A DNA stretch of 64,000 nt from Escherichia coli (GTDB taxonomy: Bacteria > Pseudomonadota > Gammaproteobacteria > Enterobacterales > Enterobacteriaceae): assembly GCF_016026235.1 (NCBI RefSeq), contig NZ_CP065613.1. One strand, 5' to 3'. Positions 20,560 through 46,717 of the stretch are shown here, one piece after another. Within the stretch, counting starts at the first letter, position 1; each line of letters starts with the position of its first letter. The translations under genes and the position numbers were made by a program. Below the pieces are notes generated by a model that saw nothing but the letters and a program-made list of their open reading frames with translations, was not told the DNA's origin and did no database searches.

Positions 20560-21771
20560 ATGAAAAAAATTGCTATTGTGGGTGCCGGGCCTACGGGGAT
20601 CTACACCTTATTCTCGCTTCTACAGCAACAAACTCCACTTTCTATTTCTATCTTCGAGCAGGCTGACGAGGCCGGTGTCGGGATGCCATACAGTGATGAG
20701 GAAAACTCAAAAATGATGCTGGCAAATATTGCCAGTATTGAAATACCGCCGATTAATTGTACGTATCTCGAATGGCTACAAAAGCAAGAAGCCAGCCATC
20801 TCCAGCGTTATGGCGTTAAAAAAGAAACCTTGCACGATCGTCAGTTTTTACCGCGAATTCTGCTGGGCGAATATTTCCGCGATCAATTTTTACGATTAGT
20901 AGACCAGGCACGACAGCAAAAATTTGCAGTGGCTGTTTATGAATCATGCCAGGTTACCGATCTGCAAATTACAAATGCTGGCGTCATGCTCGCTACAAAT
21001 CAGGATTTACCCAGCGAGACGTTTGATTTAGCGGTGATTGCCACGGGTCACGTCTGGCCTGATGAAGAAGAAGCAACCAGAACGTATTTTCCCAGTCCGT
21101 GGTCAGGCCTGATGGAAGCAAAGGTCGATGCGTGTAACGTGGGTATTATGGGAACATCCTTGAGCGGACTGGATGCGGCAATGGCAGTGGCTATTCAGCA
21201 TGGTTCGTTCATTGAAGATGATAAACAACACGTCGTTTTTAACCGCGATAACGCAAGTGAAAAGCTAAATATTACGTTGATGTCGCGCACGGGTATTTTA
21301 CCCGAAGCCGATTTCTATTGCCCTATTCCCTACGAGCCCTTACACATCGTCACCGATCAGGCATTAAATGCTGAGATTCAAAAAGGTGAAGAGGGCCTTT
21401 TGGATCGGGTATTTAGATTGATAGTAGAGGAAATCAAGTTTGCTGATCCAGACTGGAGCCAACGCATAGCCTTAGAGAGCCTGAATGTCGATTCCTTTGC
21501 TCAAGCTTGGTTTGCCGAGCGCAAACAACGCGACCCATTTGACTGGGCAGAAAAAAATCTCCAGGAAGTCGAACGCAATAAACGAGAAAAACATACTGTT
21601 CCCTGGCGTTATGTCATTCTGCGCCTGCATGAAGCCGTACAGGAAATTGTTCCACATCTGAATGAACACGACCATAAACGGTTCAGTAAAGGCCTTGCCC
21701 GGGTTTTTATCGATAATTATGCGGCAATCCCTTCAGAGTCTATTCGTCGGCTGCTGGCCTTACGTGAAGCG
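20560..21771 (+). pseudogene. ydhS: FAD/NAD(P)-binding protein YdhS, 5' portion interrupted by IS1
   Basis: N-terminal GAGPTG Rossmann motif; frame broken at codon ~404 by IS1 left end. Confidence 0.85.
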
Positions 21772-21786
21772 GGTAATGACTCCAAC

Positions 21787-22290
21787 TTACTGATAGTGTT
21801 TTATGTTCAGATAATGCCCGATGACCTTGTCATGCAGCTCCACCGATTTTGAGAACGACAGTGACTTCCGTCCCAGCCTTGCCAGATGTTGTCTCAGATT
21901 CAGATTATGTCGCTCAATGCGCTGAGTGTAACGCTTGCTGATAACGTGCAGCTTTCCCTTCAGGCGTGATTCATACAGCGGCCAGCCATCCGTCATCCAT
22001 ACCACGACCTCAAAGGCCGACAGCAGGCTCAGAAGACGCTCCAGTGTGGCCAGAGTGCGTTCACCGAAGACGTGCGCCACAACCGTCCTCCGTATCCTGT
22101 CATACGCGTAAAACAGCCAGCGCTGACGTGATTTAGCACCGACGTAGCCCCACTGTTCGTCCATTTCAGCGCAGACAATCACATCACTGCCCGGTTGTAT
22201 GCGCGAGGTTACCGACTGCGGCCTGAGTTTTTTAAGTGACGTAAAACCGTGTTGAGGCCAACGCCCATAATGCGTGCACTGGCGCGACAT
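21787..22290 (-). CDS. insB: IS1 transposase InsB segment
   Basis: 167 aa ORF recognised as IS1 InsB. Confidence 0.9.
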
Positions 22291-22484
22291 CCGACGCCAT
22301 TCATGGCCATATCAATGATTTTCTGGTGCGTACCGGGCTGAGAGGCGGTGTAAGTGAACTGTAGTTGCCATGTTTTACGGCAATGAGAGCAGAGATAGCG
22401 CTGATGTCCGGCAGTGCTTTTGCCGTTACGCACCACGCCTTCAGTAGCGGAGCAGGAAGGACATCTGATGGAAATGGAAGCCAC
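22209..22484 (-). CDS. insA: IS1 InsA
   Basis: 91 aa ORF with zinc-finger CxxC..CxxC, overlaps insB as in IS1. Confidence 0.9.
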
Positions 22485-22539
22485 GCAAGCACCTTAAAAT
22501 CACCATCATACACTAAATCAGTAAGTTGGCAGCATTACC

Positions 22540-28683: not shown

Positions 28684-28892
28684 TTATTTCGCATCCTCTT
28701 CGCAAACACAGTGCTGACAATTCAGCAGCCTGATATTAAGCATTCAACTAATACGCTGCTGACTCTGTCCCCAACACCAGATATTTTCCCTAACCCGATA
28801 GTGTATGAGAAAAGATTTAACGCCGATAAACTAATCCTTTATGGTTTTATGGTTAGGAGAAAAAATAATGTGATTATTCTGAGCCCTTAACA

Positions 28893-44827: not shown

Positions 44828-45184
44828 ATGAACGCTTATGAACTCCAGGCACTCCGCCATATTTTTGCCATGACTATTGATGAATGCGCGACCTGGATTG
44901 CCCAGACCGGTGACAGTGAAAGCTGGCGTCAATGGGAAAATGGCAAGTGTGCCATTCCTGATTGTGTAGTCGAGCAACTGTTGGCTATGCGTCAGCAAAG
45001 AAAAAAACATCTTCATGCCATCATAGAGAAAATAAATAACCGCATCGGCAACAACACCATGCGTTTTTTCCCCGACTTAACCGCATTTCAACGAGTCTAC
45101 CCTGATGGCAATTTTATTGACTGGAAGATCTATCAATCGGTAGCCGCTGAATTATATGCACACGATCTGGAGCGGCTTTGTTAA
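44828..45184 (+). CDS. ydiL: YdiL, uncharacterised protein
   Basis: 118 aa from MNAYELQALRHIF... Confidence 0.78.
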   Translation: MNAYELQALRHIFAMTIDECATWIAQTGDSESWRQWENGKCAIPDCVVEQLLAMRQQRKKHLHAIIEKINNRIGNNTMRFFPDLTAFQRVYPDGNFIDWKIYQSVAAELYAHDLERLC

Positions 45185-45283
45185 TTTTTCCACAGAAAGG
45201 AATTGTCGTTGTTACAACAATAATGAATGGATACTGACACAACATCGCTACACTTTTTAAAGCACCTTTGCTAAGTAGAACCT

Positions 45284-46497
45284 ATGAAAAATCCCTATTA
45301 CCCTACCGCACTTGGGTTGTATTTTAATTACCTGGTGCATGGTATGGGCGTCATTTTGATGAGCCTGAATATGGCCTCGCTGGAGACACTTTGGCAGACT
45401 AATGCCGCGGGTGTCTCGATAGTTATCTCATCGCTGGGCATTGGTCGATTAAGTGTCTTGCTTTTTGCAGGATTATTATCCATCGCTTTGGTCGCCGCCC
45501 TTTTATCATGCTCGGGATGTGCTGCTATATGGCCTTCTTTTTTGGCATCCTGCAGACCAATAACATCATTATCGCTTATGTTTTTGGCTTTCTGGCGGGA
45601 ATGGCAAACAGTTTTCTCGATGCAGGCACTTATCCCAGTTTGATGGAAGCTTTTCCACGCTCACCTGGGACAGCCAATATTTTAATTAAAGCATTTGTTT
45701 CCAGCGGACAATTTTTATTACCGCTAATCATTAGCCTGTTAGTGTGGGCTGAACTGTGGTTCGGTTGGTCCTTTATGATTGCTGCAGGCATTATGTTTAT
45801 TAACGCTCTGTTTTTATACCGTTGTACGTTCCCACCCCATCCGGGTCGTCGCTTACCTGTCATAAAGAAAACCACCAGCTCTACGGAACATCGCTGTTCA
45901 ATTATCGATTTAGCCAGTTATACCTTATATGGCTATATCTCAATGGCAACGTTTTATCTGGTTAGCCAGTGGCTGGCACAGTACGGACAATTTGTTGCAG
46001 GCATGTCATACACTATGTCGATCAAACTACTCAGTATCTACACCGTGGGTTCGCTGCTTTGTGTATTTATTACCGCTCCACTCATTCGTAATACCGTTCG
46101 CCCAACAACATTACTGATGCTGTACACCTTTATCTCATTTATTGCTCTGTTTACCGTCTGCCTGCATCCCACATTTTATGTGGTGATAATATTTGCTTTT
46201 GTCATTGGTTTTACCTCTGCTGGAGGTGTTGTGCAAATTGGCTTGACGTTAATGGCTGAACGTTTCCCTTACGCTAAAGGTAAAGCTACAGGGATCTATT
46301 ACAGTGCGGGCAGTATTGCGACCTTTACTATTCCGTTGATTACGGCTCATCTGTCCCAAAGAAGTATTGCCGATATTATGTGGTTCGATACCGCCATCGC
46401 TGCCATCGGCTTTTTACTGGCACTGTTTATCGGCTTACGCAGCCGCAAAAAAACGCGGCATCACTCGCTAAAGGAAAATGTCGCTCCGGGTGGGTAA
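45284..46497 (+). pseudogene. ydiM: MFS transporter YdiM, inactivated by a 1 bp deletion frameshift near codon 66
   Basis: ORFs 45284-45643 and 45508-46497 overlap in different frames; switch lies at the MFS motif codons (LLS | RFGRRP), ~45481-45483. Confidence 0.8.
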
Positions 46498-46717
46498 TGC
46501 AATATTCTTTTCAGGTCATGCAAGATCTTACGGATAAATAACTCTTTCTGCGCTAACTAAGGAAAATCGCGATCAAAAACAAACTATGACATGCAATATT
46601 CCTGGAAACATAAACTTTATGCCATGTACCCAGGGAAAATAATCTTCAGTATAGTAATTATGTAAACCGTCGGAGAACAATACGTACGGTAACGAAATTA
46701 TCTTTCAGCAAGGAGCT

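Follow-up and report, generated by a model that had tools for sequence, protein, structure and literature searches.

The ydiM locus of this Escherichia coli genome raises a simple question: is the MFS transporter gene truly broken in the strain, or does its interruption reflect an error in the sequence record or an arrangement that still yields a working protein, and if it is broken, was the loss favoured by selection? The 64,000-nucleotide stretch of DNA analysed here is hereafter called the window. We consider it very likely that ydiM is a genuine loss-of-function allele, inherited vertically and persisting under relaxed selection in a small clonal E. coli lineage.

A single base is missing from codon 67 of ydiM

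In the open reading frame (ORF) listing of the window, the ydiM locus appears as two overlapping ORFs in different frames. Together they make up a pseudogene of an MFS transporter gene on the plus strand (45284..46497), 1214 nt long against 1215 nt in the intact allele. The N-terminal ORF (45284..45643, plus strand) codes for 119 aa and contains FAGLLSIALVAALLSCSGC; its first 66 residues are native, and the remaining 53 before the stop are out of frame. The C-terminal ORF (45508..46497, plus strand) codes for 329 aa, starting with MLGMCCYM, and follows the native frame from M76 onwards, without the first 75 residues and without motif A. Public gene calls of this C-terminal piece start at M83 (position 45529) and are 322 aa long. 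Both ORFs were described correctly in the initial annotation, but the downstream frame was wrongly given there as +1: relative to the frame of the start codon, the native frame is −1 (equivalently +2).

Alignment of ydiM plus 100 bp on each side (window 45184-46597) with the closest complete genome, that of E. coli FDAARGOS_943, gave 99.9% identity, and the sole difference in 1414 bases was one missing G, in agreement with the earlier proposal that ydiM had been broken by a 1-bp deletion of a single G at about 45482. The pairwise alignment places the lost base between 45481 and 45482 (plus strand), at gene nt 199, where codon D67 (GAT) begins. The junction reads GGATTATTATCC-ATCGC in the window and GGATTATTATCCGATCGC in FDAARGOS_943 or, in short form, TCC-ATCGC and TCCGATCGC, respectively, so that the codons TCC GAT CGC become TCC ATC GC... 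The sequence of the deleted allele across the junction is TCCATCGC; a 25-mer of this allele is GGATTATTATCCATCGCTTTGGTCG. With the G put back, the locus forms a 404-aa ORF with no mismatches to the reference YdiM, WP_000795599.1 (in the RefSeq annotation: ydiM MFS transporter), which confirms the name first assigned to the gene.

A megablast search with 45184-46597 found the locus, annotated as ‘ydiM: MFS transporter’, in 5,395 of 5,426 complete E. coli genomes; the top matches listed each span 1415 bases, as compared with 1414 in the query. The gene order ydiK-rprA-ydiL-ydiM-ydiN-ydiB-aroD is conserved, with ydiK, rprA and ydiL upstream of ydiM, and the neighbouring ydiK, ydiL, ydiN, ydiB and aroD are all intact. 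The window allele thus shares its genomic position, its neighbours and its sequence, bar one base, with intact E. coli ydiM (WP_000795599.1; in K-12, YdiM is encoded beside ydiN-ydiB-aroD), and its position and near-identity to the annotated gene identify it as the orthologue. It differs in the absent G of the D67 codon; in consequence, the product of the normal start retains no native sequence beyond residue 66 and no motif A. With an intact orthologue at hand and a defined lesion that breaks the frame, the locus is a frameshift pseudogene. A scan for promoters and terminators around ydiM returned no more sites than shuffled sequence and is uninformative on polarity onto ydiN.

The remnant codons of MFS motif A (45470..45498, plus strand), read directly from the sequence, spell G63 L L S and D67 R F G R R72 in two frames. 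The deletion therefore lies in the D-R-x-G-R-R codons, as had been pointed out, the missing G being the first base of D67 in motif A. The complete motif (G-x-x-x-D-R/K-x-G-R-R/K, located between helices 2 and 3) is not encoded by any single frame in the window; the paralogue YdiN carries the same motif A as intact YdiM. The position of the deletion in this motif is incidental and carries no mechanistic significance, since any early frameshift in the gene would have inactivated it to the same extent.

Gene decay and insertion sequences in the same lineage

Other genes of the window are damaged as well. The helicase gene lhr (ORF 1221-4403) is interrupted at about 3605-4896 by ISEc60, an IS4-like element whose own transposase is split into two ORFs (3687-4403 and 4440-4877). 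A near-full copy of this element is present in just 14 of the 5,426 genomes and yet occupies 38 places in FDAARGOS_943, which indicates an IS-expanded, decaying lineage. An IS1 copy with InsA/InsB ORFs, absent from FDAARGOS_943, interrupts ydhS (ORF 20560-21852) at about 21774-22539. Compared with FDAARGOS_943, fadK (57192-58891) has suffered both a G deletion at 57461 (TATT-AATC) and a TGG-to-TAG change at 57927. The gene for the AraC-family regulator YdiP (52605-53516, minus strand) is divided by an internal stop into ORFs of 141 aa and 70 aa; this stop is also found in FDAARGOS_943, where the gene is annotated as a pseudogene, and in other relatives, and no lesion of the series is older.

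Gene decay in IS-expanded lineages has classically been described for Shigella. What we see here resembles it in that a non-essential gene with a point frameshift shares its 64 kb with copies of IS1 and ISEc60 inserted in other genes, and in that genes already inactive have taken second hits (fadK in the window, ydiM in the assembly of SRR13627093, see below). In contrast to Shigella-type decay, the lineage records that were found are all labelled E. coli.

Several small changes against FDAARGOS_943 concern repeats. Three 7-bp CATAAGC units are lost in frame from ydhW (25319), and a 6-bp CGCCAG insertion, also in frame, is present in ydhP (10681-10686). The fumD-ydhY intergenic region has an 8-bp duplication of TTTATGGT (28838-28845), and between pykF and lpp a T run has shortened from T7 to T6 (31373). 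A 99.95% relative, GCA_901482675.2, has an intact ydiM and carries lesions of its own: an IS1 in ydiB, an IS1 near ppsA and a 1-bp deletion that splits ydiO. These are cases of parallel, independent decay in sister lineages.

Intact ydiM is the rule among E. coli genomes

Of the complete RefSeq E. coli genomes, 5,344 match the site; every one of these has the G and none the deletion, which is therefore the derived state. The deletion allele is rare and lineage-restricted. Besides the window, it was detected in four assemblies (L020, L023, L024 and L030), which are considered in the next section. Two further early lesions occur in independent backgrounds, namely C163T, producing R55* (L027 and L029), and G110A, producing W37* (L028). 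Both resemble the window allele in truncating the protein early and leaving the same 322-aa C-terminal gene call, but they are different mutations at different positions and in different backgrounds, and hence independent events. Among complete genomes matching each site, R55* was seen in 0/5,344 and W37* in 1/3,091. Overall, ydiM is normally kept intact, and its null alleles are rare and sporadic. The 322-aa C-terminal product, found on 142 contigs, was rejected as a marker of the deletion, because R55*, W37* and further lesions produce it too, and the 142 contigs do not represent the size of a clade.

Could the loss of YdiM have been selected, for example through less copper import, rather than fixed by drift? 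The independent early nulls R55* and W37* in other E. coli backgrounds would fit this scenario, as would the slower 64Cu uptake of a K-12 ydiM deletion strain (PMC10588857). On the other hand, null alleles are very rare by the counts given above, no parallel loss at the exact site was seen in trustworthy assemblies, and lhr, ydhS, fadK and ydiP were lost in the same window, which is better accounted for by a general relaxation of selection. We regard adaptive loss as unlikely, and the complete-genome counts lend no support to either recurrent adaptive loss or a mutation hotspot at ydiM.

The position of the lost base invites one more speculation. In intact alleles the G sits in CGATCG, which includes a GATC (Dam) site, one of three GATC sites in intact ydiM (nt 199, 738 and 1011). 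The mismatch-repair endonuclease MutH nicks unmethylated GATC adjacent to its G. That this GATC is a repair-associated indel hotspot, or that YdiM loss is selected in IS-expanded, host-adapted E. coli (e.g., for lower copper import), seems to us highly unlikely. Relaxed selection remains by far the preferred explanation.

The deletion is shared by separate assemblies and inherited

Contigs of the lineage were retrieved by anchoring on the 141-aa fragment of YdiP; on two of them (L020 and L023) ydiM is called as the truncated 322-aa product. The YdiN protein of the window was tried as an anchor and discarded, since this protein is common to tens of thousands of assemblies, in all of which ydiM was shown as intact. 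The same G deletion was found, at the assembly level, in four separately deposited datasets. GCA_002466675.1 (L020) matches the window with 100% identity over 20,426 bp, the Logan assembly of SRR1118464 (L023) over 11,323 bp and the NCTC assembly GCA_900449985.1 (L030) over 6,969 bp, whereas in the Logan assembly of SRR13627093 (L024) ydiM is split further. One of the four may be the source of the window itself, the others being independent of it; likewise, the three locally 100% identical assemblies could stem from one strain sequenced repeatedly, in which case the evidence for inheritance comes mainly from SRR13627093.

The latter is a diverged relative and a distinct strain, with a SNP at 51580, an extra 7-bp duplication in ydiM and no fadK deletion. 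The duplication is a tandem repeat of CCTTATA, equivalent to window position 45929, which cuts the long ORF and leaves three fragments. Rescue of the frame by this change was considered and rejected: although −1 + 7 adds up to a net +6, the shifted stretch in between contains stops that block it. The duplication is a second hit in an already dead ydiM. As it cuts the C-terminal ORF in SRR13627093, this ORF is not maintained by selection; that the remaining ydiM ORF is free of selection is based on this single relative.

The lesions form a nested series. Its first member, the ydiP stop, is common to FDAARGOS_943 and GCA_901482675.2, both without the ydiM deletion and without the fadK nonsense codon; the fadK TAG and the ydiM deletion followed and are common to the window and SRR13627093; the fadK deletion came last and is confined to the window and GCA_002466675.1. 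Such nesting speaks for clonal inheritance and not for random error. The lesion is thus both reproducible across separate data and inherited, as is proper to a pseudogene.

The alternative of a sequencing or assembly artefact had to be weighed against these data; ydiM would then be intact in the strain, and the G would have dropped out through faulty base calling or a wrong consensus, for example at a Dam-methylated GATC. The lost base is indeed the G of a GATC site, and errors at ydiM probably do occur: GCA_053109935.1 (L031) has within this GATC an additional T (nt 201), together with several split neighbours, and another assembly (L026) has a T deletion in a T5 run, also with split neighbours; both resemble assembly errors. 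However, four separately deposited datasets, among them two Logan assemblies of single runs, agree on this deletion; one of the four comes from a diverged relative with further changes of its own, and together with the other lesions the deletion forms the nested pattern that descent predicts. The missing G is flanked by C and A and hence lies outside homopolymer runs. The record itself is not ridden with indels, showing three 1-bp indels (repeat-unit changes aside) and about 38 SNPs, almost all of them transitions, against FDAARGOS_943 in about 62 kb. We therefore give an artefact very little credence. Re-sequencing that restores the frame had been named at the outset as the observation that would speak against the deletion; what separate sequencing returned was the same deletion, also in the diverged relative.

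Coding capacity of the broken gene

The inherited deletion leaves two products to consider. The repaired YdiM matches the Pfam family PF07690 (MFS_1) with E=4e-39 over profile positions 1-345 of 347, a full-length family match. The C-terminal 329-aa ORF is still matched (E=9e-31), but only over profile positions 75-345, and the 119-aa N-terminal ORF has no Pfam match. Neither the 119-aa nor the 329-aa product has an exact match in the protein collection; for the 119-aa product this is explained by gene callers splitting the locus and calling the 322-aa piece.

Nothing resembling AGGAGG or another Shine-Dalgarno-like sequence was detected within 20 nt before M76, M79 or M83, and the frame junction (TTA TTA TCC ATC) does not contain a slippery heptamer of the type X XXY YYZ. 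The layout of a programmed frameshift is also at odds with the genomes surveyed: ydiM is a single-frame gene in all 5,344 complete genomes matching the site, and the two-frame arrangement occurs in no complete genome. That ydiM still functions, via ribosomal frameshifting or via the 329-aa ORF alone or paired with the N-terminal fragment, is the least credible reading of all: the ORF is open in the native frame and retains its MFS_1 match, but it starts without the first 75 residues and motif A, has neither slippery site nor ribosome-binding signal to rely on, and is cut by the 7-bp duplication in SRR13627093. As judged from its sequence, the ydiM allele would be null.

Probable origin and expected consequences of the ydiM loss

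The most plausible course of events may be outlined as follows. An ancestor of the small clonal E. coli lineage lost one G from codon Asp67. Translation from the normal start would since then quit the native frame past residue 66 and end 53 codons further on, and the resulting 119-aa fragment would comprise the first two transmembrane helices at most, with motif A absent. The rest of the gene is open from M76, with no evident ribosome-binding site and devoid of the N-terminal 75 residues; for these two reasons, a working 12-helix MFS transporter is not to be expected. The cost of the loss was presumably small and conditional, and the deletion would persist because the lineage accumulates IS insertions and pseudogenes under relaxed selection. 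The result is an ordinary pseudogene, specific to the lineage, in a gene whose transporter is conditionally dispensable; events of this kind are already known.

What the absence of YdiM may mean for the cell can be approached from work on K-12. Apart from the slower copper uptake mentioned above, a strain with ydiM and both bd oxidases deleted had no active bo3 quinol oxidase, and its aerobic growth was poor or abolished (PMC10588857, 2023). In the same study, ydiM/ydiN-like genes are linked to shikimate-pathway neighbourhoods, and earlier work is cited in which YdiM figures among putative isoprenol exporters (PMC10588857). By analogy with these K-12 data, the consequence of ydiM loss in the present lineage would be mild and conditional.

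Annotations of this lineage should label ydiM a pseudogene; beyond that, the finding is of little significance. The deletion is usable as a marker of the clade, placed between the older ydiP stop and the younger fadK deletion. Finally, natural strains devoid of ydiM offer ready material for testing how conditional the requirement for YdiM in the formation of active bo3 quinol oxidase is.
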